27,321 bases of DNA from Nitrososphaeraceae archaeon. GTDB lineage: Archaea > Thermoproteota > Nitrososphaeria > Nitrososphaerales > Nitrososphaeraceae. Where the stretch lies: contig DATFEP010000036.1 of the NCBI GenBank assembly GCA_035250975.1, forward strand, positions 1-27,321. The letters run 5' to 3'. The position numbers and the translations under genes were made by a program. Under the pieces are notes generated by a model. That model saw only the letters and a list, made by a program, of their open reading frames with translations, was not told the DNA's origin and made no database searches. Positions 4,707-25,599 of the stretch are shown here, one piece after another (position 1 is the stretch's first letter; each line of letters opens with the position of its first letter).

Positions 4707-4963
4707 TTTCGACCTAAAATTTAATAAAAAACATATTATTTTCAAAAATATAGTATTATGTTACCAGATTTTAATTAATATCCAGATATAGGATATAAAT
4801 ATAAGTTTAAGATTGCTAACTTGAAACATAAATTATAATTGTTGTCTTTTTTTGTATATAGAATCATTTTCAATAGTTGAGATCGAAAGTAACATTCCTA
4901 AATATGTATCTGACTTCAGTATACGTGGCAAAAGAAAAATAACATATAATGTACAGAAATATT

Positions 4964-6376: not shown

Positions 6377-6549
6377 ATCTGTTATATTAGATTGACTTTG
6401 TTCACGTGGATAATTAAAGAACCAAAAAAAATTATGAATGATATTTAAAATGTTTTAATACTGCCTATGAGTTTATTTGATAATGTTATTTTTTCATGAC
6501 ATCAATTTAGTCTACATATTTACAATAAAAAAACGAAGTCGTTTCTAAA

Positions 6550-7606: not shown

Positions 7607-7661
7607 CTCAACATAACTTTTGACAATCAAGTTAAAAAATGAAATCATTTCTCATTAAATC

Positions 7662-8165
7662 ATGATAGAATCTATATTAACATACGCACCATTAATCTCT
7701 GCAACAATAGTTTCAGGAGTTCTTACTATAGCTTTAATCAACTTTTCCTCGATGAGAAAAAATACCGACAGACAAAAACAACAAGAAATGAAAACTCTCA
7801 TGGTACAGACTGAACAGCAGATTTATGCTAGAATTATGGAGATGAGATTGAATTTAGAAAACACTGAAGCCTTTACGAAAATCGCTATGGAGAGTCCAAT
7901 ATTTGCCGAGAGATTCAAAGTCGTCGAAACCCCATCAGAATATTATATTATAGTGGCATTCTTTGATCTTTTTGAAGATATATTTCATCTTCATAAAAAT
8001 ACAGTGCTAGATGATTTTGTATGGAAAAGATGGAAGGTTATAATGTCAACTATGATGACTATCCCTAGATTTCAGAAGGTTTGGGAGATTACAAGATCAT
8101 CTCATCCAGATGAAGAATTTAGAAATTTCCTGGATTCATTAAATAAAGATAAAGTTGTTAATTAA
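7662..8165 (+). CDS. Hypothetical protein with N-terminal TM helix
   Basis: 167-aa ORF with a hydrophobic N-terminus and a helical soluble domain. Confidence 0.75.
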   Translation: MIESILTYAPLISATIVSGVLTIALINFSSMRKNTDRQKQQEMKTLMVQTEQQIYARIMEMRLNLENTEAFTKIAMESPIFAERFKVVETPSEYYIIVAFFDLFEDIFHLHKNTVLDDFVWKRWKVIMSTMMTIPRFQKVWEITRSSHPDEEFRNFLDSLNKDKVVN

Positions 8166-8235
8166 TTAGTTGACGTCTTAACTTGCATTCGAATTATAAA
8201 TCGTTATAAAATATGTTTTTATTATATTGTATCAA

Positions 8236-8805
8236 ATGGCTAAAATAGCTTTAATTCTGGGCTCTGTAAGAAGAGACAGACAAGGTATTAAGGTTGCAAG
8301 ATGGATTGAAAAAAAACTACAAGATAGGCATCATGAAGTCTTCTTTGTAGATCCCATGGATTTGAATCTTCCTTTGTTAGATAGAATGTTTAAAGAAATG
8401 AAAGATCCATCTGAAAAGCTTAAAGACTTACAAAGAAAAATAAAAGATGCCGAAGGATATCTAGCGGTTACGCCTGAATATAACCGGAGTACCTCTGCAG
8501 CGATGAAAAACACTCTTGATTACTTTCTAGAGGAATATTTCTTTAAACCATCTGCTATTGTATCGTATTCGCCTGGAATTTTTGGCGGTGTCAATGCCGC
8601 TCAACTGTTAAGACTTGTCTTTGCAGAATTAGGTGCACCTTCGATTCCATCAGCATTTACTATCTCTAGAGTTCACAACGCATTTTCAGAAAATGGTAAA
8701 TTAACCGACGAACAATATGAGAAAAGAATAGCTCGCTTTCTCGATGAATTTGAATGGTTTATTGCAGCATTAAAGAACCAACGAGAAAAAGGAGTTCCAT
8801 ACTAA
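8236..8805 (+). CDS. NADPH-dependent FMN reductase (flavodoxin-like)
   Basis: LGSVRRDRQG, TPEYN, MKNTLD and KPSAIVSYSPGIFGG motifs. Confidence 0.93.
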   Translation: MAKIALILGSVRRDRQGIKVARWIEKKLQDRHHEVFFVDPMDLNLPLLDRMFKEMKDPSEKLKDLQRKIKDAEGYLAVTPEYNRSTSAAMKNTLDYFLEEYFFKPSAIVSYSPGIFGGVNAAQLLRLVFAELGAPSIPSAFTISRVHNAFSENGKLTDEQYEKRIARFLDEFEWFIAALKNQREKGVPY

Positions 8806-8986
8806 TAAAGTATTTTTTAATATATCAATATCAATATCAATATTATTATCTACTTATCGTCGGATATATCAGGAGATATATTTAAAAAATACCTTCTAGA
8901 TTCATATGAATATTGATAATGATTTTCAGTATTTTTAAACTTTAAATATAAAACTTAATAAAATTTGTTGCAGAATAACTATTAGA

Positions 8987-9109
8987 ATGACCAACAATAA
9001 ACAAGAATTTAAGTGTGAAGGCTGTCATACTATCTTTGGTTCAGAAAGGGAATTAATGGAACATGAATCTTTCGCAAGACATAGACGCCCAGGTTCATGT
9101 TGGCAATAA
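8987..9109 (+). CDS. 40-aa C2H2-type zinc-finger microprotein (below ORF-track cutoff)
   Basis: MTNNKQEFKCEGCHTIFGSERELMEHESFARHRRPGSCWQ fits the F-x-C-x2-C-x3-F-x5-L-x2-H-x5-H pattern. Confidence 0.7.
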   Translation: MTNNKQEFKCEGCHTIFGSERELMEHESFARHRRPGSCWQ

Positions 9110-9551
9110 TGTATTGTTTATTACTAGAAGAACATTTAAAGAAAATGAAATATTTTTAGTTGAGTTCTTTAAATGATCCCATCTACTTTTGTGCAATCCG
9201 ATTTATGTCTATTATCTATTAAATAAAAACATATTAAAATCAGCAGTTTTGTTTAAAAGTTTGAACTAATTACAATCTATGATGATAATATTTTGTTCCT
9301 ATCTATTTGATAGATGGTATTTTATTTTTATTCTCTAATTTCTCAAATGAATTTGGCAAATTATAAATTATTGATCTGAATATTAAGGATATTAAAGAAA
9401 CAAAAAAAGATACCGATTTTAATTCTACTCTAAAAAAGAATAGAAAATTTTAAAAAAGATATGAATGATTCAAAATTTTTAAGATGACAAACTTATTTTT
9501 TTATTTTTAGATATAAAAGATATAAAAAGTATTGTCATGTTCGTTAAATTA

Positions 9552-9710
9552 AAAGTATTCTTTTTTTATCTTTTTCTTCTTTGGTCTGGGTCTCTCCTGT
9601 TCTGATGAATCTACAAACGATTTGAATCTTGGGAAACGTTTCTGTACTTGCTCTATGGTTCTCAATCTTTTCTTTGTACATTTATTTTACAATTTTTGAG
9701 GTAATGGAAT
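9552..9710 (-). mobile_element. Internal fragment of an IS5-like/DDE_Tnp_4 transposase
   Basis: IPLPQKL*NKCTKKRLRTIEQVQKRFPRFKSFVDSSEQERPRPKKKK resembles the F-[IV]-D-S-[ST]-E-Q-x-x-P-R-P motif around the first catalytic Asp. Recognised from memory of the family. Confidence 0.65.
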
Positions 9711-9712
9711 CT

Positions 9713-9765
9713 CCCAACTACATGTCATACCTGAAGCCCTCCGAGCCCATATACTAGTAGGGTTC
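9713..9765 (+). repeat. Dispersed site A (type 1)
   Basis: CCCAACTACATGTCATACCTGAAGCCCTCCGAGCCC-N11-GGGTTC. Confidence 0.9.
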
Positions 9766-9801
9766 AATGATATTTTTGCAAAGTTTAACTTGGAAAATAA
9801 A

Positions 9802-10401
9802 TCATGGTGCTAAACTTGACATATTTTGGTATACTCTAGCATCTTCCAGACTGGTCATGTTTTGATATACTCTATCTTGTCCAAGACTAGACATATTTTG
9901 GTATACTCTAGCATCTTCCAGACTGGTCATGTTTTGGTAAACTCTAGCATCTTCCAGACTGGTCATGTTTTGATATACTCTATCTTGTCCAAGACTAGAC
10001 ATATTTTGGTATACTCTAGCATCTTCCAGACTGGTCATGTTACGATACAATGTGATAGTAATTATAGTATTTCCAAGTAAAGATAGTTCATATTTATTTA
10101 TATTAACATCTGGAATCATATGCAATAAACGGAAATGATTAAAATCTATATATGTCATATCATTTACATTTTTGCTTAATGGTTTAGTATTTTCTGAATA
10201 TGTTATAGATATTATTTTATCTTTAATGCCTTTCCAATCGTTATGAGAGTATTTTTTGATAGTATTTATATTATTTTCATTAACATCTCTTTGTGCAAAA
10301 GATAATTCAAAAAATGATAAAAATAGTATACTACTACTGATAAAGGAAATACTAATAAACAAAAAAAGAATTTGAATAGGTTTTTTTCTTTCTGTCTTCA
10401 T
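9802..10401 (-). CDS. Secreted/membrane-anchored protein with C-terminal 12-aa tandem repeats
   Basis: Signal-like N-terminus and about 7 copies of RVYQNM[TS]SL[EDA/GQD]. Confidence 0.75.
   Translation of the reverse strand: MKTERKKPIQILFLFISISFISSSILFLSFFELSFAQRDVNENNINTIKKYSHNDWKGIKDKIISITYSENTKPLSKNVNDMTYIDFNHFRLLHMIPDVNINKYELSLLGNTIITITLYRNMTSLEDARVYQNMSSLGQDRVYQNMTSLEDARVYQNMTSLEDARVYQNMSSLGQDRVYQNMTSLEDARVYQNMSSLAP
9805..10047. repeat. 36-bp coding tandem repeat, about 7 units in two variants
   Basis: Units of the form TATACTCTAGCATCTTCCAGACTGGTCATGTTTTG[GA] and TATACTCTATCTTGTCCAAGACTAGACATATTTTGG, with no spacers. Confidence 0.95.
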
Positions 10402-10504
10402 AGATTGAAGAATTGAAATAACTATATAATAATTTTATACAAATTATTTGCTATTAGTATTATAATCAAATTATTATCAAATATATAATAATTTTTATTA
10501 TTTA

Positions 10505-10545
10505 GAACTACAAAATTGTGTCAAAAACAGTTGACAATCGTCCGA
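10505..10545 (+). repeat. Dispersed site E (type 2, right part decayed)
   Basis: GAACTACAAAATTGTGTCAAAAACAGTTGACAATCGTCCGA. Confidence 0.9.
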
Positions 10546-10928
10546 TTGCAATGATTTAATTATTATTTATTAATTTAAATTGCTAAGCCTAAATAATAAA
10601 TTATATTCTTTTTCTGACCCGTGAGTTTTTTTACACAAACATTTCTGCCATTAGAAAACTTTTAATCTATTAAATGACCTGTTCTAGCATTTTCTAATGC
10701 ATAGAATAGTCTGTCAAGATGTTTCGTTTTAATAAAAAGAGTTACAGTAAAATGAGTGCCGCTCATAGTCTTATCTAATATTAATAAAAGTTTATTTCTT
10801 TCTTTAGTAATATATTGATCAAAATTCAAAATAGAGAACCAATATTATAAAATAAGATCTTCTTTAACAAATCCTTCAACAAAAAGCATTGAATCTTAAT
10901 GTTCATGAATATTCAATTTAGAATTTGC

Positions 10929-11714
10929 TTATTTTTTGCCCATTAACTCATAAACATAATTAACATGTTCATAAGTTTTCAATTTCTTATCTTCTGGTAT
11001 TTTTATTTTTTTAGTTCTAAATGTATTGTTAGTTATCTTTCTTAATGCATTATTCAACTCTTTCGAAATGATAATTTGATCATTATCAGCAAATCCCTCA
11101 AGTCTACTACAGAAATTAACATCATCTCCAATAGCAGTAATCTGACTTCGAAGAGGAGAATACCAATATCCAAATAGAACTTGACCAATATGCATACCAC
11201 ATTTCAAATTTATATTGGTAGTAGGCTTGTAATCATAATGAGAATATAAAATTTTCATATGTTTTTCCTTAATTTTTATAAAATTCGTCTTTAACTCTAA
11301 AGCAGCATCCATTGCTTTTGAATGAACTATATCAAATTTTTTATCTTGGTAACCGAAATAAGCAAAAATTCCATCGCCTATAAATTTATCCAATATTCCA
11401 TTATTTTTTTTTATCACCCTTGTTGCTTCACTATAATAATCTCTTAATAAGTATTCTAATTCATGAAATATAAGACCTTGTTTTTTCATTCGTTTTTTCA
11501 TTAATGCTTTTAATTCTTTAATTAAGGCAGAAAATTTACTTATATCCCAAAATACAATAATGAAATTATTGATGTTGACTCCATCTAACTTTAATTCTTT
11601 AATATGTTCGTATATGAATGGATCAAAATACATACTTAGTTGTTGCTTAGAATAAGGATCATTATCTGTAATATTTTGATCAGTCATATATTTACACCAA
11701 TTATCTATTTCCAT
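10929..11714 (-). CDS. Class III adenylate/guanylate cyclase (adenylate-type residues)
   Basis: VFWDISKFS, LDKFIGDGIFAYFG, GMHIG and TAIGDDVNFCSRLE motifs. Start may be 11687. Confidence 0.92.
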   Translation of the reverse strand: MEIDNWCKYMTDQNITDNDPYSKQQLSMYFDPFIYEHIKELKLDGVNINNFIIVFWDISKFSALIKELKALMKKRMKKQGLIFHELEYLLRDYYSEATRVIKKNNGILDKFIGDGIFAYFGYQDKKFDIVHSKAMDAALELKTNFIKIKEKHMKILYSHYDYKPTTNINLKCGMHIGQVLFGYWYSPLRSQITAIGDDVNFCSRLEGFADNDQIIISKELNNALRKITNNTFRTKKIKIPEDKKLKTYEHVNYVYELMGKK

Positions 11715-12105
11715 TAAGATAGATTGACAGGTTGGGAATCTGGATATTATATCTCTTATGAAGATATCTTAATCTTTGAGTATTGCTCATATTTTCATAG
11801 TCTTCAGTAAAAATAATAATACTATTAACTTCTCTTCTATGGATTTTACATACATAATCTATTCGTTCATAATTATAATTAAACATGATTTCTCCCACTT
11901 CTCCAGAGTTTAGATAAAGTCTTTCATCTAATACTTCAATATTTGTTGGGTCAGGATCAATTTTAATAAAGTAGAGATGGTGAGATTCATTATCCGTATT
12001 AATCCATGTAATGGTATCTCCTTTTTGAATTTTGACGGCTTGCGGAATATAATTCCTAATAGATTCATTACGTAGAAATTGTGGAATGATTACCTGATGT
12101 TTCAT
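11701..12105 (-). CDS. Cupredoxin/plastocyanin-fold protein without signal peptide
   Basis: YIPQAVKIQKGDTITWINTDNESHH and DYVCKIH motifs. Confidence 0.8.
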   Translation of the reverse strand: MKHQVIIPQFLRNESIRNYIPQAVKIQKGDTITWINTDNESHHLYFIKIDPDPTNIEVLDERLYLNSGEVGEIMFNYNYERIDYVCKIHRREVNSIIIFTEDYENMSNTQRLRYLHKRYNIQIPNLSIYLNGNR

Positions 12106-12120
12106 TACTATTATGTAATT

Positions 12121-12467
12121 ATATCAAATAGGATAGATATATAGAAATATCAACAGACAACATTGAAGAAACAAAAAAATTCTATTCGAATATGTTTGGC
12201 TGGGAATTTGAGAAAAGTGGAGGAGGAGGAGAAAAGTATTGGTTAATAAAAAATGCTGGAATAAAAGGAGCAATAACTTCAAAAAGAGAAGATAATCAAA
12301 CTCCTACATTTTATATTACGGTAGAATCAATATATGAATTCATAACTAAATCTCAAAAGCAAGGTGCAAAGATGGTAGTTGACAAACAGGAGATATCTGA
12401 AGGTTTTTATGCTACATTACAAGATCAGCAACAAAATACATTTGGTTTACGGAAAAGCAAAAAATAG
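12121..12467 (+). pseudogene. VOC/glyoxalase family protein with damaged 5' end
   Basis: The frame extends upstream of 12192 as IEISTDNIEETKKFYSNMFGWEF but hits TAG at 12129-12131 with no start codon. C-terminus reads YATLQDQQQNTFGL. Confidence 0.75.
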
Positions 12468-12665
12468 TAAGTAAAAGTATTGTCTAGATTAAATCAAACC
12501 ATAATATTTTTTGAAACAAAATAGGTTACTAGATTGATTTATAAATCCGAAGATATCCCTGGCGAAATGTGTCTATCTTATCACCAGTAAGAAATTTTAT
12601 TAGTAAATTTTGCAGTTAATGCAGCAAGGTTGCCAGACTTAAATTTGATAAACTTATTACTTTTT

Positions 12666-12727
12666 GAACTACAAAATTGTGTCAAAATCAGTTCACACAC
12701 CTCCGAGCCCGTACCACATCAAGGTTC
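12666..12727 (+). repeat. Dispersed site F (type 2)
   Basis: GAACTACAAAATTGTGTCAAAATCAGTTCACACACCTCCGAGCCC-N11-AGGTTC. Confidence 0.92.
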
Positions 12728-12796
12728 CGTTACATCGAATATTTCAAGTATTTTAAAGAAAACGCAATAAACTGATGCTTTTTACAATTCCTTAAT
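12723..12796 (+). repeat. About 75-bp direct repeat copy 1 (IS-end-like)
   Basis: GGTTCCGTTACATCGAATATTTCAAGTATTTTAAAGAAAACGCAATAAACTGA...AATTCCTTAAT matches 14442-14518. Confidence 0.85.
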
Positions 12797-13030
12797 GGTT
12801 TATGTTCAAGCATCATTGTAAAAATAACAATAACAAGAATAATTTTAACAAAACATGAGGATATAGGAGCTATAAAAATTAATAAAAAAATGCCTCAATA
12901 ATTACTAATAATTATAGTAATTATAGTAATGTTCTGGTAGTCCTAATGGAAGTAATGGCAGACAATTAGTATTTAGATTTAACAAATTATTATTTTTTTT
13001 TTCGCGACGGCAGCAGCAGTGAGGATTTTG

Positions 13031-13942
13031 TTACTGCAATTTTACCCCCTTTTTACCACCCTTCACGCCAGGGGCTTTTTCACTTGGTATCTCTTTTGTA
13101 TTTTTAGATAATGGGATATCTCCTTTTTTTGGAAATTTCCCTTTAAGCAATGGTTGTAGGGGGATCTCCTCTTTCCTTACCTGTAAGTCCTTAAATATGT
13201 CTGCACTATTTTTGTTCTCTTTTTCTTCATCTATTTCAATACCTAGTTCTTCTTCCACATTTTCCTTTCTAGCTCCAATTAGTAGAAGCTGGGTATTTTC
13301 ATAGTCTAGTATTTGAGGATCATCTACATTTATCCACCGTCTTTCTCCAAACTTTTCTTTAATTTGTCTTGGATATTTAGGTTTTCGATCTTTAGAAAAT
13401 ACTTCATAACCAGGAATAAAAACTTCAGGATTTTTTACTGATACAATGTAACTTGCCTCTTTTTTTATTTCAAATTCTGTCTGAGTAGGACCGGGAACTT
13501 CTGGTAACTCTAATATATAAGCTAATTCAGTATGGCCCTCATGGTTAATAATTGAATATTTTCCTTCTCCAGCAGGGTGCGCTGCCGACACTCTTCTTTT
13601 CCCTTTTGTTTTTGTAGTATATTCGGCCTGTACAAAAAGTTCTTTGTGTATATCTTTAGGATTAGAAGTATTCAAGATATTTAACGCCCAATTTCTTTCT
13701 TCCGAATTTGATTTTCCTTCTACTATTTCTGGCATTTTCTTACTGCCCAGCATAAAAAGTCTATAAGTTTTATTTTTATTTTTATTCTTACTATCTGGAT
13801 AAGTTAACATATAAAATCTTTGAACATCAGATAGATCTTTTACTTCTTCAGTATCAATTTTTGGTCGATAAAAGAAAAAAATATCTCCACTCTCAATAAG
13901 TCCTTTATTATCATCATAGTTGGAATTTAACTTCCTTGCCAT
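13031..13942 (-). CDS. Conserved hypothetical protein, C-terminus probably frameshifted or truncated
   Basis: IESGDIFFFYRPKI and HTELAYILELPEVPGPTQTEFEI motifs. It ends in a KGG-like motif, and another frame continues KIAVTKS...AAAVAK. Confidence 0.8.
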   Translation of the reverse strand: MARKLNSNYDDNKGLIESGDIFFFYRPKIDTEEVKDLSDVQRFYMLTYPDSKNKNKNKTYRLFMLGSKKMPEIVEGKSNSEERNWALNILNTSNPKDIHKELFVQAEYTTKTKGKRRVSAAHPAGEGKYSIINHEGHTELAYILELPEVPGPTQTEFEIKKEASYIVSVKNPEVFIPGYEVFSKDRKPKYPRQIKEKFGERRWINVDDPQILDYENTQLLLIGARKENVEEELGIEIDEEKENKNSADIFKDLQVRKEEIPLQPLLKGKFPKKGDIPLSKNTKEIPSEKAPGVKGGKKGVKLQ

Positions 13943-14441
13943 TTTTTTAATGCTCCTCATTTTTTTCTGCTTTGTTTGATTGGAAGAGAATTGAATGAAT
14001 CATTTTCATTATAATAGTATATTGATCAACAATGTTTTTAAAAATTATATTGATTACAAGCTTAATTTATATTGATGAAGTTCTGTTATTAAACGAATAA
14101 AATATTACAAAAAATAATATTTTAATATAATAATGATTTAGATAGGTAATTAAAAATACTTATCAGAAATTTTAGGTTTTTCTTTTTAATATATTGTCTA
14201 ATGTTAATAAAGAAGATCTGAAATGAAAGTTCACAATATCACATTACGTTATTTTTGAATATTATTTAAAAGTATAAACTTGAATAAGGGTTCGAGTCCC
14301 GTAGTCTAAATTAGTAATTGTCTTTTTAACACAATAGCAGTCAACATGGCAACTTGAAAACAAATAATAGATAGACTCTATTATCCTCAATCAATGAATC
14401 CAAATCTTAGGATTCGAAGCGAGCATACAGTTCCCACCAGA

Positions 14442-14518
14442 GGCTCTGTTACATCAAATATTTTCAACGTATTTTAAAGGAAACACAATAAACTGAATTC
14501 TTTTTATAATTCCTTAAT
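14442..14518 (+). repeat. About 75-bp direct repeat copy 2 (IS-end-like)
   Basis: GGCTCTGTTACATCAAATATTTTCAACGTATTTTAAAGGAAACACAATAAACTGA...AATTCCTTAAT. Confidence 0.85.
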
Positions 14519-14950
14519 TCCATTTCTACCAGAAGATGAATTGCTATTCTTCTTATAGTCAATAATTCAGAATGATAGAATATCAGAACATTATATAGTT
14601 ATCCTTCCAACGTTACTGTATTTCTATATCCGGTATTTATACCAAACTCATTTTTTGGCAATAAATTATATTAAAAAAAGATATTAAAAATATCTTTGTT
14701 GTTTGGTTGGTTAGTTAGTTAGTGTATTATTGGTTTATTCTGCAGGTAAGAACAGATATGTTTTTTACATTGGAATAGTTCCCAATACTCTCCTTTCTCT
14801 ATATTCCAGTATATCGGAGTATTGCAACCGTAACAACAGGTGTTATTCATGTGTACTTTTTATCATGTTACTAATAGTATTTGTACTAATTGAAATATTA
14901 CTATATAATATTTATAGTAGTAACAATAGTATAGTATTGTTATTAGTTAC

Positions 14951-15190
14951 TTACTGATTTTGTATTATAACCCTACCTGATTTATTTTTAATAAATTCAA
15001 ACCTTGTCTTTAGTTTGTCCCTCTTTCCTTCTGGTACTTCATAATAGACAAGTAAATCTAATAAACCAGTCTTGATATCTCTTTCCCTTTGTGAACCGTG
15101 TACTTTACCTCCTGATTGGATTACAATATCAGACACTAGTCCTCTTCTCTTTATAGCCTTAATTCTTCTAATAGGTTTCACAGTAGTCAC
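14951..15190 (-). CDS. Basic hypothetical protein or gene fragment
   Basis: 79-aa K/R-rich ORF with GTG start and protein-like composition. No family recognised. Confidence 0.4.
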   Translation of the reverse strand: MTTVKPIRRIKAIKRRGLVSDIVIQSGGKVHGSQRERDIKTGLLDLLVYYEVPEGKRDKLKTRFEFIKNKSGRVIIQNQ

Positions 15191-15240
15191 ATTATTGGTG
15201 AATACGAAAAGTCAAAGTTTAAATCTTAAAAAAACAGATT

Positions 15241-15299
15241 CCAATTACATGTCAAACTTGAAGCCCTCGGAGCCCATATTACATCGGAGTTCATATACA
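15241..15299 (+). repeat. Dispersed site C (type 1)
   Basis: CCAATTACATGTCAAACTTGAAGCCCTCGGAGCCC-N11-GAGTTCATATACA. Confidence 0.92.
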
Positions 15300-15546
15300 A
15301 GTTTATTGTAACAGCAACTAACGACACCAAAAACTATACAATATCTTTTGTTAAACTTGAAATTAGTAGTGCAACGAACAGTAAACATAATTAGCATATA
15401 TAACCCTGAACTTGTATTTTGTTTTAGTGATTATCTTGATAATTGTAAATTTAATCAACTAAAATCATTAATTAATTACAATAAGATTAAATTAATTTGA
15501 AAAAAGAGAGACAAAAAATAAAAATAAAAATATTACTTATTTTTAG

Positions 15547-15948
15547 TCAAAATTCCCATTCCCAATTTCTTGCGGACGTATTACCTCGTTCATCTATTTC
15601 AAATTCAAAAACTGCCATCGTATTGTTGAGAAAAGCAAGACTTGCTGTTGAATCTGTTCTATAAAATGCACTACCACGAAATCTTACTACTCTTGCGGAT
15701 ATATATCGACCCAATCCCTGTGCTGTCCATGTAGCCATTTGACCATCTGTACTAACTAAGACTCCTCGTCCCTCTCCATATAATACTCCTCCTGGTCTTA
15801 CACTGGTCCAATAAGTTCCGAGATCGTCGATATCTATTCCTCTGAAACTACCTTCAGCATTAAATGTATTTTCTATCTTGGGAACTTCCTCCAAAACTCT
15901 ACGTCCAATAATCTGACCCTCTTCATGACCTATTTCTGCTCCTAACAT
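15547..15948 (-). CDS. Conserved hypothetical beta-rich protein
   Basis: MLGAEIGHEEGQIIGRRVL...GVLYGEGRG...LAFLNNTMAVFEFEIDERGN...WEW. ATG at 15948 with a TATA-like tract upstream. Confidence 0.8.
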   Translation of the reverse strand: MLGAEIGHEEGQIIGRRVLEEVPKIENTFNAEGSFRGIDIDDLGTYWTSVRPGGVLYGEGRGVLVSTDGQMATWTAQGLGRYISARVVRFRGSAFYRTDSTASLAFLNNTMAVFEFEIDERGNTSARNWEWEF

Positions 15949-16012
15949 ATCACTATATGAGATTATCAAAGATTTAAACCGATTCAAGAATTATATATTT
16001 TAGATTAATTAC

Positions 16013-16079
16013 ACTACAAAATTGTGTCAAAAACAGTTGACAATCCTCCGAGCCCGTATTATATCGGGATTCATATACA
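16013..16079 (+). repeat. Dispersed site G (type 2)
   Basis: ACTACAAAATTGTGTCAAAAACAGTTGACAATCCTCCGAGCCC-N11-GGATTCATATACA. Confidence 0.92.
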
Positions 16080-16280
16080 TTTATATTCTAAAATAGCAAG
16101 GAGAAACGGCTAAAATGTCTCAAAAACTTGAAACTGTTCTGAAAAAGATAGCCTTTATTCCTCGTTGTCAAATAATGATGTAAGAAAGTAGTATATATCA
16201 CTCTCATAATGCATCTCAGCAAATAAAAATATTCATTCAAAATATTAGATCATTTAAACTAACCCAATCATGTAATAAAG

Positions 16281-16308
16281 TTTATATATTGTAATGGCTA
16301 TTACAATA
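16281..16308 (+). promoter_or_regulatory. TATA box and overlapping 9-4-9 inverted repeat upstream of hsp20
   Basis: TTTATATA at 16281-16288 preceded by a purine-rich BRE-like AAAG. TATTGTAAT-GGCT-ATTACAATA at 16287-16308. Confidence 0.65.
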
Positions 16309-16325
16309 CAAGGTGGAATATTACA

Positions 16326-16961
16326 ATGAGTAATAGAGATATAATTCCAAGTGATTGGAATAAGAGATTTTTTAGTGGACGAAGTCGTTTTGGCAGCTGG
16401 AACCTTAACGATCTATTCAGAGAATTTGATGAAATGAGAAACGAAATAGAAAGAACATTTTCTGAATCATTTAAAAATATTGAAAACAGAGTACCAAAAG
16501 ATTTAGTTAAAGAATATGAAACACCTGAAGGTGGAAAAGTTAGAGAAGTAGGTCCAATAATATATGGCTATTCTATGACCATAGGACCTGATGGAAAACC
16601 AGATATTAGAGAATTTGGTAACGTAAAATCTCCTTTTACTGGCAGAACAGAATTCTTCAAACAACCATCAATTTCTTCAGAAAGAGAACCTTTAGTTGAT
16701 ATATCATCTACAGATAAGGAAGTAAAAATTGTAGTAGAAATGCCAGGTACTAAAAAAGAAAATATAAAGATAAATGCTTACGAAAATTCGGTAGAAATAA
16801 TAAGTGATAATCCACAAAGAAAATACCATAAAGTAATAGATTTACCAACAGAAGCAGATATTGAAACTGTCAAATCTACATATAATAACGGAATTCTGGA
16901 AATCGTATTTAATAAAAAGAAACAGACAAAGCCTAAAGGAAAAGAAATTAAAGTAGAATAA
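16326..16961 (+). CDS. hsp20: Archaeal small heat-shock protein Hsp20
   Basis: GPIIYGYSMTIGPDGKPDIREFGNV, EREPLVD, alpha-crystallin YNNGILEI and C-terminal IKVE (IXI/V) motif. Confidence 0.95.
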   Translation: MSNRDIIPSDWNKRFFSGRSRFGSWNLNDLFREFDEMRNEIERTFSESFKNIENRVPKDLVKEYETPEGGKVREVGPIIYGYSMTIGPDGKPDIREFGNVKSPFTGRTEFFKQPSISSEREPLVDISSTDKEVKIVVEMPGTKKENIKINAYENSVEIISDNPQRKYHKVIDLPTEADIETVKSTYNNGILEIVFNKKKQTKPKGKEIKVE

Positions 16962-17476
16962 TAATAAGTAATTTTTTAACTTATTTTTATTTATTTTTAA
17001 TTTTTATGACTTGCTAAAATATATAAATTTTGGACAATAAAAATAATAGAAAATGTTTAATAATTGACTATCAATTAAAACTTTATTAAAATATTATTTA
17101 TGAATTTGAATTCCTTTTTCAAACATTTGGTAATTCAGATTATCAAAGATGACAATAAAACTAGATTAATCTAATTATTAGATAAAGGCTTATCTTTAAG
17201 AGCCTTTTCAATTTTTTCTATATCTTCATTTCCAGATTCTAATCTCTCAATATAACTAAATAACGAAAATCCTAAATATTATGTTACCGAACACCGTCAT
17301 AATGCAAATTCGAACTCCTCTGAGCTTTGCAATTTTGTTATTGAACCTATTTAGTCAATGGGGCCAAGCAGATATGAATCCTTGCAGTTATCTAGAATTA
17401 TGGCCACTGTAAATTCATACACTTGATCTAACCTACATTATATAATGATAGAACTTTATGAAATGAAAATAAAATT

Positions 17477-17670
17477 ATGAGAACAATATCAATTATTATA
17501 TTACTTGTAGTATCAATATTGTTATTTTTTGGATCTCTCCTTGATTATCAATTAACTTACAATTATGCCTATACCTTTCCTCCCTCAATGCTCATCTTGC
17601 TATTGAAGAACTAAATCAAACAACAACAACTAACACAAGTAAAGCAGCTACAACAATGCCCTGTGAATAA
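17477..17670 (+). pseudogene. Possible remnant of a small secreted protein
   Basis: Signal-peptide-like MRTISIIILLVVSILLFFG, then in another frame AHLAIEELNQTTTT, reminiscent of the 1334-1621 C-terminus. Confidence 0.3.
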
Positions 17671-17731
17671 AGATTGAAATTAAGAGTTGAATGAGTCCTC
17701 TGGGATGTGACCTTTGACATAGAATTGTGTA

Positions 17732-18643
17732 TTATGCTTCAATAGCCTTAACTTCTGCTTTTATTTCTGGTCTGGAAGAAAAGAATTCAGAAATCTTCTG
17801 AGCAATTAGGTCACAATCTTCTTCTAAAGCAAAGTGACCGGTATCAAGAATGTATGTCTCTATATCTTTTAGGTCTCTTTTGTATGGATGTGCTCCCGAT
17901 TCTGGAAAGATATAGTCGTTTTTACCCCATACAATTAATGTAGGAGGCTGATACTTTCTAAAATTCTTTTGCCATTGTGAATATAGCGGTGGATTTGTTT
18001 TATAATCATAAAGCATCGCTAGTTGAATTGCAACATTACCAGGACGGTTCAATCCAGTCTGATCGATTATCCAATTGTCAGGACTGATTGATTGAGGATT
18101 TCTTGTTCCGTTAACATATTGCCACTTTGTTGTCTCCTCTGTCACCAGATAGTGAAGTTTCTTTTCATTTTCGAGAGTTTTATTATTCCACCAATCTTTT
18201 ATGGGATTCCAAAATTCTCCTAGACCTTCATCATATGCATTTCCATTTTGTATAATAAATGCCTGTACTTTTTCCGGCTGCATTGAAAATAGTCTGAATC
18301 CAATCGGTGCACCATAATCCATCATGTAAAGACTGTATTTTTCCAATGCAATTGTTTCTACAAAGTCAAAAATAATTTTGCCTATATTTTCAAAAGTATA
18401 GTCAAACTCATCGACTGATGGCATAGAGCTGTTTCCATATCCTGGATAATCTGGTGCCACAAGATGGAATTCATCAGACAGTTTTTGCATTAGATTCCGA
18501 AACATGTGTGATGATGTTGGAAAGCCATGCAACAACAAAATTGTTGGGGCATTCTTTGGACCTGCTTCTCTGTAAAAAATATCGAGACCATGTATTTTGA
18601 CAGTTTTGTATTCTGTCATGTATTTGGTTTGGTATTTATTCAT
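17732..18643 (-). CDS. Alpha/beta hydrolase (epoxide hydrolase/dehalogenase-like)
   Basis: LLHGFP, APDYPGYG, nucleophile MDYGAP, WGKND and TGHFALE motifs. Confidence 0.92.
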   Translation of the reverse strand: MNKYQTKYMTEYKTVKIHGLDIFYREAGPKNAPTILLLHGFPTSSHMFRNLMQKLSDEFHLVAPDYPGYGNSSMPSVDEFDYTFENIGKIIFDFVETIALEKYSLYMMDYGAPIGFRLFSMQPEKVQAFIIQNGNAYDEGLGEFWNPIKDWWNNKTLENEKKLHYLVTEETTKWQYVNGTRNPQSISPDNWIIDQTGLNRPGNVAIQLAMLYDYKTNPPLYSQWQKNFRKYQPPTLIVWGKNDYIFPESGAHPYKRDLKDIETYILDTGHFALEEDCDLIAQKISEFFSSRPEIKAEVKAIEA

Positions 18644-18700
18644 AAGTATATAATATAATAAAAAATATATAGGTTGGCTGGTAATATTTTTTTCGATGTT

Positions 18701-18766
18701 TGTCCAAATTGGACAGGATTTAAGATATAAACCATTATTAGATGGTAATAATGTCCAATATGGAAA
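18701..18766. promoter_or_regulatory. Two 15-bp palindromic operator candidates in the divergent promoter
   Basis: TGTCCAAATTGGACA (18701-18715, perfect) and TGTCCAATATGGAAA (18752-18766). Confidence 0.65.
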
Positions 18767-18796
18767 AGTTATTATCTAGTTATTTAAAGAGACATT

Positions 18797-19789
18797 ATGC
18801 TTGATAAAGTAGACAAAATTATTATAGCTCAACTGGGAAAAAATGCAAGACTATCATCACAAGAACTACGAAAAATCCTTCAAGCTACTGGACATAATAT
18901 TACAGACAGAGGAGTAAGACATAGAATACAAAAATTAGAAAAAAATAATATAATTTTAGGATATTCGGCAATCATAAATCCTAACATAATCTCAGAAAAA
19001 ATTAATCGTACTGTTCTATTGAAATTCAAGTATGGAAAGTCATCACAGGAAAGAATCAAACAATTAACTGACTATGTGAATCAATCATCATTTTGTTTAT
19101 ATGCTAACCGATTAAGTGGTGATTATGATTGGATTTGTAATTTTATATTTGATTCAATCGAACAATATGAATTGGAAACTGATAATTTTGTAAATAGATT
19201 TTCTTCATTGATTTCAGATTTTAGATCATATGAATCTAAAATGATTAAGTCTTCACCATATTCAGTTTATGATGAGGAGGGAATTAAGGAGAAAAAAGAA
19301 AGAGTATTTCAAATTTTAAGTTCTGTTAGAAAGTACAATACTCTTAATGATAGATTACAGGCAATTGTAGAAAGTTTGGTAAAATATTTTGATGCTGCGT
19401 TTGCCCGGGTTTGGTTTGTTGATGAAAATCAAAAATATCTGATTTTAAAGTTTAGTGCAGGAATGTATACCGGAATAAAGGGAGAATTTTCAAAGGTATC
19501 CATTAATTCATTAAAAATTGGTCCGGTAGTAAAAACAAAAAAAGCTGTTGTTACAAATGATGTTGTAAATGATCCAAGAATAAAACATCACGATTGGGCA
19601 AAAAGGGAAAATTTAAAGTCTTATGCTTCCTATCCACTGATATACAAAGGAAAATCAGTTGCTGTTTTAGCAATGTTTAGTAAAAAAAGGCTGACTCATG
19701 TTGAATTCGAGGTTTTAGGTATATTTTGTGATCAACTTTCAAAAGAATTGGCCGGTTTTTTTGAGGCCAAAGATTTTTTATTGGAATAA
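18797..19789 (+). CDS. Lrp/AsnC-family regulator fused to a C-terminal GAF domain
   Basis: MLDKVDKIII...NARLS...RIQKLEKNNIILGY HTH, RAM-like LSGDYDW domain, then GAF (ARVWFVD, TNDVVNDPR, SYASYPLIYKGKSVAVLAMFS). Confidence 0.88.
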   Translation: MLDKVDKIIIAQLGKNARLSSQELRKILQATGHNITDRGVRHRIQKLEKNNIILGYSAIINPNIISEKINRTVLLKFKYGKSSQERIKQLTDYVNQSSFCLYANRLSGDYDWICNFIFDSIEQYELETDNFVNRFSSLISDFRSYESKMIKSSPYSVYDEEGIKEKKERVFQILSSVRKYNTLNDRLQAIVESLVKYFDAAFARVWFVDENQKYLILKFSAGMYTGIKGEFSKVSINSLKIGPVVKTKKAVVTNDVVNDPRIKHHDWAKRENLKSYASYPLIYKGKSVAVLAMFSKKRLTHVEFEVLGIFCDQLSKELAGFFEAKDFLLE

Positions 19790-20082
19790 GAATTTTTAAA
19801 ATATTTCTCGCGAAAAAGAATATATAAAAATATTATTTTGAGTTGAAAAATAATTATTTATTGCTCATTATCTATTATAGATAATTTTAATTTAATTATT
19901 ATCATTATACAAAATTTTTTAATATATTCTAAGATTAAAAGATGCGTATAACTTGGCAATGAGACTGTAAAATATTTTATTTAACAAAAATTTACTGGTC
20001 CCAATTTATAGAAGGATTCAAATCCCACTGATTCCTCTTTTTCGTTTTTTTATAATTAATTAGAAATTGTTTGCAAATATTC

Positions 20083-20137
20083 AAATAAGTTACCAAATTA
20101 ATAAATAACAGTTTACCGATCCAATTACATGTCATAC
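20083..20137 (+). repeat. Dispersed site D (type 1, left flank plus core only)
   Basis: AAATAAGTTACCAAATTAATAAATAACAGTTTACCGATCCAATTACATGTCATAC matches 22850-22903. Confidence 0.88.
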
Positions 20138-20147
20138 TAAAAACAGG

Positions 20148-21206
20148 TTATTTGAAAAACTCTAGTATCTGTTTTGTCAGAAAATTTGGTCTTTCTTCCG
20201 GAATGAAATGCCCTGTATTTGGTAACGTCATCCCTGTAACGTTGTTTGAAACTTTTTGAAATGATGTTGTAGTCAAGTTGCCTAAACCTGCTTCTCCGCC
20301 TATTGTCAATATTGGTATATCTAGTTTTTCTTTGGCATATTCCTTGTTTTGTTCTGCATCTTCAAAAACTGCTCTATAGTATTCAAAACCAGCACGCATT
20401 GCGCCAGGTTTTGAATATTGTTTAATATACTCTTCTCTAGCTTCTGATGTTATTGCAGATTGATTATAAGTCCAGTCATAAAACCAATTAAGATATGTGT
20501 CTTCTTTTCCTTCAATCAATTTCTCTGGTAGATCCCTTACTGCATGAAATGAGAGATGCCATAATCCATTTGGTGAAAAGTTTGCTGCTTCTTCTAATCC
20601 AAATCCAGGCAAAACGATATCAAGTATAACCATTTTATTTACACCTTCAGGATGTGCGGCTGCATAAGAATATGCTACTGCTGCTCCCCAATCATGTGCC
20701 ACAAGATATATTTTACTATATCCTAGTTTCTTTACTAGTTGGTAAATATCTTCTGCAATAGTTTTCTTGTCATATCCTGTTTGTGGTTTTTCTGAATCTC
20801 CTATACCTCTCATATCGGGAGCTATTGCTGTATAATTGTTAGCTACTAATTGGGTAATAATGTGTCGCCATTCATACCATGTTTGTGGAAAACCGTGGAG
20901 TAAGACTATTGGATCTTGACCATTACCTTCACCACTTATCACATAGTGAAGTTGAATTCCATTAACTGTGGTTTTGTGATGTGTATAGTCTATTTTTTTC
21001 TCACTATTATCACTAATAGTGTTTTGTTCAGCAGTAACTGGATAAATAAATCCTAATGAAACTATAGAACAACAACAGATGATGAATATTAGAAAACTTT
21101 TAAGTATAGATAAACTACCGATAGTATTCTCTCTTAGAAATACTAGCCATAAAGTAAAACTTTTCTTGTTTTTCATTTGTTTATCAGATTTAAATCGATT
21201 TTCCAC
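20148..21206 (-). CDS. Alpha/beta hydrolase (epoxide hydrolase-like) with N-terminal signal/TM segment
   Basis: LLHGFPQTWYEW, APDMRGIG, AHDWGAAV and TGHFIPEERP motifs. Start codon uncertain. Confidence 0.92.
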   Translation of the reverse strand: MENRFKSDKQMKNKKSFTLWLVFLRENTIGSLSILKSFLIFIICCCSIVSLGFIYPVTAEQNTISDNSEKKIDYTHHKTTVNGIQLHYVISGEGNGQDPIVLLHGFPQTWYEWRHIITQLVANNYTAIAPDMRGIGDSEKPQTGYDKKTIAEDIYQLVKKLGYSKIYLVAHDWGAAVAYSYAAAHPEGVNKMVILDIVLPGFGLEEAANFSPNGLWHLSFHAVRDLPEKLIEGKEDTYLNWFYDWTYNQSAITSEAREEYIKQYSKPGAMRAGFEYYRAVFEDAEQNKEYAKEKLDIPILTIGGEAGLGNLTTTSFQKVSNNVTGMTLPNTGHFIPEERPNFLTKQILEFFK

Positions 21207-21249
21207 TTTACATACACCACCATCATTTATTGCTATAATCTATAGAATC

Positions 21250-21663
21250 CTAGACTTTAAGACGATTAAATTCTCCTATAATAGTGCGAGATCCAGATGT
21301 AATGAGAGATAGATATTGCTGATAAAGTGATTCACAATTCTTATCTTTTTCCATATTTGCCATTATTTCATCTCTGTGATTGCGATCTCTGTAAGACTGT
21401 ACTTCTATCCAAACCTCTTCCTCATCTTGTTTAGCTGAGACAGTTTCTGTTATATTTACAAAATTCATTATAGTATCCGTACTGCTTAGATAAAAGAATT
21501 CTGAATTAATAGGTCCATGTATCGGTAACGAATTTTTAATTTGTTTATTGAGTTGTACCATAGCATCATGATTCTTTTTAGGTACTCGATAAATAAAGAT
21601 CTGAGCATGACTTTCAATTTCTTTTTTCTCTTGTTCATTTCCCAATATGTTTGATTTACTCAT
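21250..21663 (-). CDS. DUF1428-like dimeric alpha/beta barrel protein
   Basis: FIYRVPKKNHDA, SYRDRNHRDEIMANM and terminal GEF motifs. Confidence 0.75.
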   Translation of the reverse strand: MSKSNILGNEQEKKEIESHAQIFIYRVPKKNHDAMVQLNKQIKNSLPIHGPINSEFFYLSSTDTIMNFVNITETVSAKQDEEEVWIEVQSYRDRNHRDEIMANMEKDKNCESLYQQYLSLITSGSRTIIGEFNRLKV

Positions 21664-21848
21664 AGTTTTTTAGTATATTAGGTATAGTATAAAAATCAGT
21701 AGGGAGTAAAAATATCGTTAGCAGGTGCAATGCATCAAAGACACCAAAAAGAGCAGTCATATCACAGTTATGAATGAAGAGATCTCGCCATTATATTGGA
21801 ACTAACTATAATTATATAAACTCCTGAATTATTCTTAGAAGGATAATA

Positions 21849-22754
21849 TTGCCGCCACAATTTACAATCATAGATGCTCCTTCAATTCTAGGATTACGAC
21901 CAACAGGAGTAGAACTTCTACCTAATGCGCTGAAGGCAGCAGGCCTGATTGAAAGATTAAATGCGAATTATGCAGGGAGAGTTTCTACGTTGCCTTATAA
22001 TTCAGAACGGGACAAAATAACTCTTTTACTAAATCCTGACTCCATCAAAACATTTTCCCTACAACTTGCAGACATGGTCTTTTCTGTTATTCGTAGCAGA
22101 CGGTACCCAATTATACTAGGAGGTGATTGTAGCATCGTGATTGGTAATCTTCTAGCTCTAAGGCGTTTGGGAAGATATGGATTATTCTTTATAGACGGCC
22201 ATGCTGATTTTTATCAGCCAGAAGCTTCTTTAACAGGAGAGGTCGCCGATATGGATCTTGCAATTGTATCTGGTCGCGGTCCAGATGTTTTGACTAATAT
22301 CGATAATCTTAAACCACTTGTCCGTGATGAAGACATAATTCTATTTGGTTACCGCGATAGAGAACAAGCCGCAACTTTTGGAAGTCAAGATGTTCGAAAT
22401 ACTAATATTCATTCATTTGATCTTGCATACATTAAACAACGAGGAATTACAACTGCCGGATCAGAGGCTGTCAAGAAGCTTTTGAATAATGAACTTGGTG
22501 GATTTTGGATCCATCTCGATGCCGATGTATTGGATGACTCAATAATGCCAGCAGTAGATTATCGTCTAAATGGTGGTTTAAGTTTCCATGAGCTTACTGA
22601 GCTTTTGAAAATCATAGTTGCTACAGGTAGCAGTGTTGGGATGGATATTACTATATTCAATCCCAATCTTGATCCAGATAGTTTGATAGCCAACAGATTC
22701 GTTTCGAGTTTACTCGAAGGTATATTAGAAAAAGACCAAGTTGATATTTTATGA
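21849..22754 (+). CDS. Arginase/ureohydrolase family protein
   Basis: GGDCS, DGHAD, HLDADVLD and GLSFHEL motifs. TTG start. Confidence 0.92.
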   Translation: MPPQFTIIDAPSILGLRPTGVELLPNALKAAGLIERLNANYAGRVSTLPYNSERDKITLLLNPDSIKTFSLQLADMVFSVIRSRRYPIILGGDCSIVIGNLLALRRLGRYGLFFIDGHADFYQPEASLTGEVADMDLAIVSGRGPDVLTNIDNLKPLVRDEDIILFGYRDREQAATFGSQDVRNTNIHSFDLAYIKQRGITTAGSEAVKKLLNNELGGFWIHLDADVLDDSIMPAVDYRLNGGLSFHELTELLKIIVATGSSVGMDITIFNPNLDPDSLIANRFVSSLLEGILEKDQVDIL

Positions 22755-22849
22755 ACATAAAGAATTTTAGAAAAAACAGCTGTAAGAAAAATTCAACTCT
22801 TATAGACTTGTTTTTCTAATTTTTTCATGTTCTAGTAAGGAATACTTTA

Positions 22850-22936
22850 AAATAAGTTACCAAATTAATAAATATTGGTTTGCCGATCCCAATTACATGT
22901 CATGCTCAAGCCCTCCGAGCCCATATAATAGTGTTC
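22850..22936 (+). repeat. Dispersed site B (type 1 with left flank)
   Basis: AAATAAGTTACCAAATTAATAAATATTGGTTTGCCGATCCCAATTACATGTCATGCTCAAGCCCTCCGAGCCCATATAATAGTGTTC. Confidence 0.92.
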
Positions 22937-22972
22937 AATGATATTTTCGTAAAGTTTAACTTGGAGAATAAA

Positions 22973-23055
22973 TCATGGTGCTAAACTTGATATATTTGCA
23001 TATACCCTAGCATCTTCCAGACTGGTCATGTTTTGGTATATCCTAGCATCTTCCA
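22973..23055 (-). pseudogene. 3' remnant of a paralog of the 12-aa repeat protein (9802-10401)
   Basis: Encodes (L)EDARIYQNMTSLEDARVYANISSLAP*, with the same downstream flank as 9766-9804. Confidence 0.85.
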
Positions 23056-23493
23056 ATGAAAATGTTGGTAGTATTTTAGCAGATTTACCAGTATTAGCTT
23101 TAATAAAGTGGGATGTATTACCTATTGTCTTTTAAATCGGCTGATGAAAGGGACTGCAAGGTAATAGATAGACTGAAAGGTGGACACTAGTCATACTTCT
23201 TATATATCCAATTCCCTCGAATTTGCTTGTGTGAAAACGTTACTGAAAAGTCTATCAAAAATATTTTAAAATTCCTTGATCAAAGATAATATTTTTATAA
23301 ATTTATCGTAAAATAACACGGGATTGAATCGTAAAAAAGAAATAGTAACAGACCAGTAGATATGTAAATGAAAGTTCTGTGTCGATTCCACTGTCTGCAT
23401 TCAACTCTTGGCTTCTAATAAATACAAATAAAAAAGTACTGTATTATGATAGTAATTGCATATTAAAACACAATTTCTATCGTTGAATTTGTC

Positions 23494-23555
23494 GAACTAC
23501 AAAATTGTGTCAAAATCAGTTGATACACCTCCGAGCCCTATACATCTTTAGGTTA
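23494..23555 (+). repeat. Dispersed site H (type 2)
   Basis: GAACTACAAAATTGTGTCAAAATCAGTTGATACACCTCCGAGCCC-N11-AGGTTA. Confidence 0.92.
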
Positions 23556-23567
23556 TATTTTCTATTA

Positions 23568-25123: not shown

Positions 25124-25546
25124 ATGCCTATTACAAAAGGTAAAATTATATTGATAGTAGATGACGATGAAGATCTTACTAATCTATTTAAAACATTTTT
25201 AGAATATGATGGATATAAAGTAGATGGTTTTACCAATCCTATTGATGCTTTATACTCTTTTAGAAGAAATGTATATGATCTTGTTTTACTTGATTTGAAA
25301 ATGCCCAAAATGAATGGTTTGGTATTATCTCGAAGATTACAGAATATAGATCCTGCTCTATTATTTAGATTTATTACTGCCGCAAATAAAGAATACATAG
25401 AAGACCTCAAGAAAAATAATCCAAATATTGAAAAGATTATTATATACAAACCAATCTGGTTAAACGAACTACGAAGTAAAGTTCATTCACTTTTATTCAA
25501 CCAACAACAACCAAATGATAAAAAACAACTATTGATGACATTATGA
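25124..25546 (+). CDS. Single-domain response regulator (receiver)
   Basis: IVDDDED, LLDLKMP (phospho-Asp), FITA and YKP motifs. Confidence 0.92.
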   Translation: MPITKGKIILIVDDDEDLTNLFKTFLEYDGYKVDGFTNPIDALYSFRRNVYDLVLLDLKMPKMNGLVLSRRLQNIDPALLFRFITAANKEYIEDLKKNNPNIEKIIIYKPIWLNELRSKVHSLLFNQQQPNDKKQLLMTL

Positions 25547-25599
25547 TTAATAAATAGAATATAATTATAAAAAATTGAAAGAAAATAATAAATAATAAA

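Follow-up and report, generated by a model that had tools for sequence, protein, structure and literature searches.

This analysis concerns a set of short, repeated intergenic sites in a 27,321-nt stretch of DNA from a Nitrososphaeraceae archaeon. The stretch, hereafter the window, is the whole of contig C36 (DATFEP010000036.1) of the source assembly G000 (GCA_035250975.1; 2.49 Mb, 91 contigs, 30.6% GC). Comparison with related genomes makes it very likely that the sites are attachment (att) junctions of small integrative elements, which would target the 3' end of tRNA-Arg(TCG) by means of a tyrosine integrase. Nine co-oriented sites lie at 9674-23562, all built around a core that is the 3' end of this tRNA, and in three relatives an integrase gene stands directly behind the intact tRNA. 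The relatives compared are labelled G012, G026, G037, G048, G059, G078 (nearly closed), G100, G117, G122, G134 and G138, and individual loci are labelled L. Three site types, T1, T2 and T3, were modelled as hidden Markov models (HMMs) from genome-wide copies and searched with nhmmer.

The original prediction, made from the sequence of the window, had listed eight co-oriented sites of two types and a possible degenerate copy at 17273-17325. All eight were found on the plus strand, and the degenerate copy proved to be a real site carrying the third arm type, T3 (68 bits). The scan with the three models placed 9 of 9 sites on the plus strand and none before 9674, in agreement with the earlier remark that the first 9.7 kb is free of sites. 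As a family, the sites occur far more often than by chance, the assembly as a whole giving 38 matches. A T2 20-mer, ACTACAAAATTGTGTCAAAA, has four exact copies, all on the plus strand (10507, 12668, 16013 and 23496; 0.02 expected in shuffles); three of the four had been placed 2 nt off. A T1 14-mer, CCAAYTACATGTCA, has four exact copies on the plus strand (9714, 15241, 20121 and 22889), and a fifth match on the minus strand at 18614, with 2 mismatches, is at chance level (0.53 expected). The copy at 20121 is truncated, as had been noted; that the T2 copy at 10507 has a decayed core is a correction. Positions and anatomy of the nine junctions are given in Table 1.

The intervals between sites in the window are 0.5-2.7 kb long and contain 0-3 unrelated accessory genes each, on either strand. 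The cargo comprises a secreted repeat protein, a cyclase-domain protein, a plastocyanin-like protein, HSP20, two alpha/beta hydrolases, an HTH-GAF regulator, a DUF1428 protein and an arginase-family protein. The T1 site at 15241 overlaps two 79-aa open reading frames (ORFs) that have no Pfam match.

A core derived from tRNA-Arg(TCG), and the adjoining integrase

The core takes the form CCTCCGAGCCC, the last 11 nt of tRNA-Arg(TCG), in T2, and TCGAAGCCCTCCGAGCCC in T1, with one base more in T3 (the last 18-19 nt). Its identity with the tRNA end was seen in G078, L063, G134, G037 and G026; in G078 the tRNA, as called by ARAGORN, ends in ...GGGATCGAAGCCCTCCGAGCCC(G) and is followed by GTCAACCAATTGGGCTCATATAC. 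The original prediction had missed the tRNA and did not recognise the sites as a described kind of element, and in this it was wrong, since tRNA-derived att junctions are a textbook class. It had also described an inverted repeat, GAGCCC-N11-GGGTTC, at the end of most sites. This repeat is perfect at 9738 only; in other copies the right half varies, reading AGGTTC, GAGTTC, GGATTC, GTTC or AGGTTA. The left half of this "hairpin" is the 3' strand of the tRNA acceptor stem.

Integrase ORFs of 436-479 aa begin about 60 nt past the intact tRNA-Arg in G078, L063 and G134, the 436-aa ORF of G078 starting 59 nt downstream of the tRNA. This last ORF matches phrog_1 integrase (E 4.5e-14), and candidate catalytic residues (R, K, R-H and Y), read by eye, are invariant in four integrase sequences. 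A PDB sequence search with the integrase returned chance-level zinc-ribbon matches only. Two possibilities raised earlier were supported: that the sites are the accumulated ends of an integrative element family, and that a tyrosine or serine recombinase would be found near them, a tyrosine integrase adjoining the sites in relatives. Intact integrase genes of this family are present in G078, G134, G037, G138 and G122, beside many stubs and pseudogenes, so the family is multicopy. The two long integrase ORFs of the source assembly (C9 and C57) show only 31-33% identity to it.

A sister integrase subfamily, 56-73% identical (L065, L066, L068 and L069), lies behind a different core, CCCGACGGGCCC, followed by GTTATGTATTCGGGTTCATATACATG and a similar right arm; this suggests that the element family was retargeted to another tRNA. 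Elsewhere in the source assembly, an intron-containing tRNA-Arg(TCT) (G000:C16:19237-19330) has at its end TCGAAGCCCTCCGGGCCC, which differs from the core by one mismatch; the HMMs match it weakly, and it lies outside the array.

Inspection of the junctions showed that three left arms (T1, T2 and T3) pair freely with four right-arm classes around the one core, T1 and T3 being diverged versions of a single arm. Two of the right arms lead into integrases: class b (GTCAACCAATTGGGCTCATATAC...) into one subfamily (G078, L063, G048:137776 and G000:C27), and class c (GTATTATATCGGGGTTCATATACA...) into another (G134, MPQKLETVLKH...). When 87 distinct T2 instances, drawn from 53 contigs or loci, were aligned, the information content rose at position -5 (GAACT...) and fell to zero right after ...CCTCCGAGCCC; the 17-mer used as an anchor is conserved by construction, and the other 28 columns are free of that bias. 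Arm conservation likewise stops at the 3' edge of the core in T1 (38 instances) and T3 (24 instances). The conserved blocks are one-sided and terminate at the tRNA core. Such sharp boundaries, together with hybrid arms, fit tandem integration, in which each junction would join the left element's distal arm, through the core, to the right element's proximal arm.

Remains of integrases were found behind several cores. N-terminal stubs follow cores in G000:C27 (74 aa, directly after the core at the contig start), G000:C32 (at 14527), G048, G078 and the window itself at 16115-16150. Window nt 16045-16144 and the part of the intact G134 element next to the tRNA (L075:1564-1667) align at 80%. The stubs are truncated at about aa 45-72, with differing DNA downstream; a recurrent break point was sought in them and no second site was found. 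One complete element could be delimited, in G078. It is 4.6 kb long and consists of the integrase, a 154-aa ORF, a gene with a SIR2_2 domain and a T3 arm; no replication gene is present in it. Because the complete element is this short, the modules would be the remains of intrinsically small elements made of an integrase plus cargo.

Beside one integrase stub of G048 (L037, G048:C11:149900-150200), a high-GC stretch, in a genome of about 30% GC, abuts the ribosome-binding region and the start of the stub. Either foreign DNA was captured at a junction, or the assembly is chimeric here. Free forms were searched for in IMG/VR: the exact T2 pattern gave 0 matches, and the 18-mer core gave five, of which four were chance matches in high-GC coding DNA and one was a 36%-GC contig starting at a tRNA-Arg tail, with an integrase in none of the five.

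Two other classes of repeat were weighed against this anatomy. Short, intergenic, strand-biased sites with a hairpin-like motif, and with GTCAA-N6-TTGAC in T2, could be miniature inverted-repeat transposable elements (MITEs), palindrome-associated transposable elements (PATEs) derived from IS200/IS605 insertion sequences, or a conserved promoter, terminator or small RNA. We consider all of these very improbable, and recognition of the core as tRNA sequence led to their rejection. A tRNA 3' end closes the conserved block, which adjoins integrase genes or stubs; the sites show neither terminal inverted repeats nor target duplications, the window contains no transposase, and an Rfam scan of the window at E<=1 returned no family. 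Moreover, the sister family, with its different core, retains the right half of the "hairpin", so pairing is not what conserves it.

The second class is the integron, or a cluster of attC sites lacking an integron integrase (CALIN), in which attC sites would be acted on by an IntI-type integrase. Integrons are reportedly present in Archaea, and the likeness is real: co-oriented short sites divide small accessory modules of variable order, and in some genomes an integrase stands at the head of the array. attC sites follow the layout R''-L''...L'-R' with the consensus GTTRRRY. The sites described here have no R''/R' pair, and their sole GTT motif, GTTGACW, does not fit the consensus as commonly given. 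They are double-strand att junctions with a tRNA core and not folded attC; genes lie on both strands with no common promoter, the modules come from autonomous elements, and the integrase is not IntI, scoring 28 bits against the NCBIfam XerA/integron-integrase model (cut-off 220). The absence of any Rfam match at E<=1 points the same way. With its defining features failing and the core derived from a tRNA, this reading was rejected, and we give it practically no credence.

Arrays, their distribution and the exchange of modules

In the source assembly, 33 of the 38 family matches are located on six contigs (C36, 9 on the plus strand; C11, 9 minus; C32, 7 plus; C87, 4 minus; C27, 2 minus; C90, 2 plus), and the strand is uniform within each. 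Contig C11 of G048 (151.6 kb) has all 31 of its sites on the minus strand, at 40.4-143.5 kb; no tRNA is present on it. The clustering and co-orientation that had been proposed as a check are thus found in both genomes. In G078, 33 sites are spread over about 215 kb, the tRNA and the first 5 sites being forward, the following 27 reversed and the last one forward. Spacing between sites has a median of 2.7 kb (interquartile range 1.4-4.4 kb, 89 intervals).

T2 was detected in 22 of 24 other species of the genus. Among 176 genomes of the other 17 genera of the family it was present in six, belonging to three genera (2/38, 1/2 and 3/7), with 0 in the remaining 14. G012 (98% complete) has no array, no T2 and no family integrase. 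A single remnant is left in it, a 5'-truncated tRNA-Arg(TCG) copy that ARAGORN does not call and that still has a class-c right arm (L078, G012:C17:109206-109265). Upstream of the tRNA, synteny is kept in G078, G037, G134, G026 and G012; downstream, each of the five differs.

Module content and order were compared between species, as had also been suggested; both differ, with breakpoints at sites. The clearest case is the module at 10858-12710, which has no integrase. Its identity is 95% with G078, 94% with G100, 93% with G134, 93% with G059 and 94% with G117, and past the core the sequence is different in all five. The rpoB region, used as the species baseline, is 97% identical between G000 and G078 and 80-81% identical between G000 and G100, G134 or G059. 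(Another region, C51:53802-59745, was dropped as a "core" baseline because it falls within the island region of G078, and the rpoB region was substituted for it.) Identities of 93-94% against 80-81% for rpoB indicate a recent passage of this module between species. The shared module continues through T2 to the core in the window, G059, G100 and G134, and four different sequences begin directly after it; the G078 copy is cut short of the core and is followed by a fifth. On its left the module is less sharply delimited, its edge not coinciding with a clean core in all genomes.

A second example is the HSP20 module (16044-17325), which is homologous core to core with G048:C11:107717-106267 and has a T3 end in both genomes. 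It is preceded by T2 in the window and by T1 in G048, and the downstream sequence differs. More generally, G048 and G000 are collinear in the flanks and permuted in the island, and on the contigs that carry sites, 22 of 23 blocks still face the same way relative to them. Of 62 homology-block ends between these two genomes, 14 fall within 50 bp of a site, versus 5.4% for random points.

Two readings of the exchange go beyond, or stop short of, stacked integrations. According to the first, an extension of the explanation by att junctions, the array would be an active, integron-like capture platform at tRNA-Arg(TCG). Its mobile units would be the integrase-less 0.5-5 kb modules themselves, each with a 45-70 nt arm and the 11-19 nt tRNA-derived core. 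An integrase in trans would excise them as circles and reinsert them at any core, and the cassettes, reordered and exchanged between species, would make up a 100-200 kb flexible island. The T2 arm behaves as such a unit, being a sharply bounded 45-nt block next to at least 87 different upstream sequences. The integrase-less module shared with G059, G134 and G100 well above their rpoB identity, the HSP20 module kept core to core between different neighbours, and the permuted order with kept orientation all agree with it. We nevertheless regard it as a tentative proposal and less probable than its negation: modules hold integrase stubs and therefore descend from autonomous elements, the best example lacks a clean core on its left in part of the genomes, and transfer is possible while the integrase is still attached, or within larger segments. 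A recombinase acting in trans on integrase-less cassettes, as the original prediction had it, is not supported as stated, no intact family integrase being present in the window or the assembly. If true, such a platform would mean that cassette shuffling evolved independently of IntI and attC.

According to the second reading, the array is a frozen relic of past integrations, and species differ solely through homologous recombination between the 45-70 nt repeats and ordinary insertions and deletions. This is unlikely in our opinion, and somewhat more so than the capture platform. It would account for the lack of an intact family integrase in G000 and G048, for the 77% of block ends that are off sites, and for the identity of modules between these two genomes (88-95%), which resembles that of the syntenic flanks (88-94%). 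Breakpoints, however, coincide exactly with the 3' end of the 11-nt core and are not spread over the 45-nt repeat; several species have intact integrases, and one module is far more similar across species than rpoB.

The explanation by att junctions itself has a number of observations against it. Contrary to what stacking alone would give, 27 of the G078 sites face away from the tRNA, which needs an inversion. One large inversion would explain the orientations, but no inverted repeat other than the sites themselves was found at the two switch points, so that the inversion is undocumented. Most block ends (48 of 62) are away from any detectable site, and other processes must therefore also cut the island; the enrichment of block ends at sites is moreover partly expected, the sites being conserved themselves. 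The family integrase is assigned from HMM matches close to the Pfam threshold, the G078 ORF scoring 26.3 bits (cut-off 27.1) against PF00589 Phage_integrase in one search and 28.1 bits in another, and an AlphaFold model from a four-sequence alignment had a mean pLDDT (predicted local distance difference test score) of 45, too poor for use. The window contains no tRNA (ARAGORN) and no integrase gene, and G000 and G048 carry only fragments of the family integrase. In G000 the tRNA-Arg(TCG) was not assembled, contig C27 beginning inside a core, so the head of the array is unseen there. No clean empty attB was found among the tRNA flanks of G078, G037, G134, G026 and G012, and no excision product or empty site was seen within one population. 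Overall, the observation made in the original prediction was confirmed and its interpretation was partly supported.

Features of the window beyond the junctions

The first module of the array carries a gene for a 199-aa predicted secreted protein (Table 1). Within it, 36-nt tandem repeats at 9826-10054 code for YQNM(T/S)SL(E/G)(D/Q)(A/D)RV units. The 3' end of this gene and junction 1 are duplicated at 22889-23045 (89%), the second copy of the gene end lying at 22926-23045.

The site-free part of the window, 1-9673, matches G078 inside its array at 2275-2594 (92%), 4964-6403 (83%) and 8231-8792 (71%); judging from these matches, it too belongs to the flexible island. Accessory genes in this part include DUF326, DM13, patatin, aldehyde dehydrogenase and FMN reductase genes. 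A zinc-type alcohol dehydrogenase at 6550-7606 seems to be divided among three frames that overlap or adjoin (ADH_N 6550-6984, ADH_zinc_N 6894-7313, ORF 7358-7606) and is probably a frameshifted pseudogene. Nucleotides 1-272 are a repeat, 98% identical to G000:C20:7180-7441 and G078:C10:621645-621908, with several copies of 72-83% identity in the G078 island, and overlapped by a 70-aa open-ended ORF without Pfam match; this repeat is probably the reason why the assembly broke at the left end of the contig. Beyond the last site, at 25124-27321, are a response-regulator receiver gene and, next to it, a pair of neighbouring MEDS-domain genes. Parts of 9700-19600 were present in 20 read runs from 12 studies (share 0.90 in one, 0.20-0.47 in the rest), a result to which we attach no evidential weight.

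Table 1. Junctions, modules and integrase remnant in the window.
Feature	Position	Strand	Description
Junction 1	9674-9778	+	T1 arm, upstream part missing, conservation from ~9712; nhmmer T1 68 bits
Junction 1, core and right arm			Core CCTCCGAGCCC at 9738-9748 (core regex); class-a right arm ATATACTAGTAGGGTTCAATGATATTTTT
Module 1 cargo	9802-10401	-	199-aa predicted secreted protein with C-terminal 12-aa tandem repeats
Junction 2	10500-10552	+	T2 arm, decayed core CGTCCGATTGC (10539-10549; 7/11), no right-arm motif
Module 2	10858-12710	+	Adenylate/guanylate-cyclase-domain gene, plastocyanin-like gene, 91-aa ORF; ends in the T2 arm of junction 3
Junction 3	12661-12739	+	T2 arm, core 12700-12710, class-d-like right arm
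Junction 4	15198-15304	+	T1 arm, core CCTCGGAGCCC at 15265-15275, class-c right arm
Junction 5	16009-16083	+	T2 arm, core 16045-16055, class-c right arm
Integrase stub	16115-16150	+	12 codons, MSQKLETVLKKI; matches the start of the intact class-c integrase behind the G134 tRNA-Arg (MPQKLETVLKH...)
Module 5, HSP20 cassette	16056-17327	+	Class-c arm, integrase stub, HSP20 gene (16326-16961), T3 arm
Junction 6	17260-17352	+	T3 arm, decayed core CCTCTGAGCTT (17317-17327); the "degenerate copy" of the original prediction
Junction 7	20080-20143	+	T1 arm, ends before the core
Junction 8	22845-22947	+	Full T1 arm, core 22912-22922, class-a right arm
Junction 9	23489-23562	+	T2 arm, core 23528-23538

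A model of stacked integration, and known systems

The following sequence of events would account for the arrays. The free element would carry an attP consisting of a distal arm (T1, T2 or T3; 34-60 nt), the core, which repeats the final 11-19 nt of the tRNA, and a proximal arm of one of four classes, at least two of which lead directly to the integrase gene. An element integrating into the tRNA, or into any core copy already present, would restore the tRNA and put a core copy at its own far end. Repeated integration would build a head-to-tail stack, whose internal sites would be hybrids of two elements and would all face one way. Most elements would then have lost their integrase and become 0.5-5 kb accessory-gene modules, and recombination at the cores, by an intact family integrase or by homologous exchange, could delete, move or swap them. 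Of this, the tRNA origin of the core, the integrase gene next to the tRNA, the hybrid build of the junctions, the arrays, the breakpoints at the core and the permuted order were observed; we infer that the joints are the work of the integrase and that recombination is ongoing.

Ammonia-oxidising archaea drive soil nitrification, and to our knowledge the gain and loss of their accessory genes are poorly known. Much of the flexible gene pool of this genus appears to be channelled through one tRNA-Arg integration hot spot, with a cargo of stress proteins, hydrolases, signalling proteins, metal-handling genes and a SIR2-type defence candidate. Reshuffling is far faster in the island than in its flanks, modules pass from one species to another, and horizontal gene transfer in uncultured Nitrososphaerales thereby gains a concrete, testable locus. 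In annotation, the T1, T2 and T3 models serve as markers of the island boundaries and account for the breaks of these assemblies at the sites.

The island can be viewed as an archaeal counterpart to the tycheposon islands of Prochlorococcus. Tycheposons, in the part of their description available to us, are integrase-bearing cargo elements at tRNA genes, in which newcomers push older elements inward; their islands are strewn with partial tRNAs and fragmented integrases, and the cargo forms plug-in cassettes (10.1101/2020.12.28.424599). Stacking at a tRNA site, partial tRNAs, fragmented integrases and cassette-like cargo are common to both systems. The arrays described here differ in their archaeal host, in having more than 30 junctions in a single tRNA-Arg island, in their short and sharply bounded distal arms, and in the one intact element, which has an integrase and cargo but no replication module; this comparison is made apart from any integrase phylogeny.

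A similar accretion of integrative and conjugative or mobilizable elements (ICEs, IMEs) is described in streptococci. As far as that account extends in the part available to us, the cis-mobilizable elements (CIMEs) are decayed elements that have lost their integrase and kept attL and attR, stand in tandem with newcomers at a tRNA 3' end, and can be mobilised in cis (PMC5704250). Integrase-less remnants stacked at the 3' end of a tRNA are found in both cases. CIMEs are of bacterial conjugative origin, with two to a few elements per site, whereas dozens of modules and no conjugation genes are found here.

Closest in host are the integrated elements of Thaumarchaeota, which, in the available parts of the two surveys, mostly occupy the 3' part of tRNA genes, have short att sites (median 17 bp, down to 8 bp), include many "cryptic integrated elements" made of an integrase and cargo, and are known to integrate in tandem (PMC6563490, PMC8371274). 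All four properties are shared with the present elements. Arrays of tens of junctions and integrase-less modules of 1-3 kb are not described in those parts of PMC6563490 and PMC8371274, and the name Nitrosocosmicus is absent from PMC6563490. The mechanism, tandem integration at a tRNA gene, is thus already known. Relative to the systems compared here, what is new is the element family with its arms, core and integrase, the archaeal host clade, and the scale, with tens of junctions over 100-215 kb and a genus-wide distribution.

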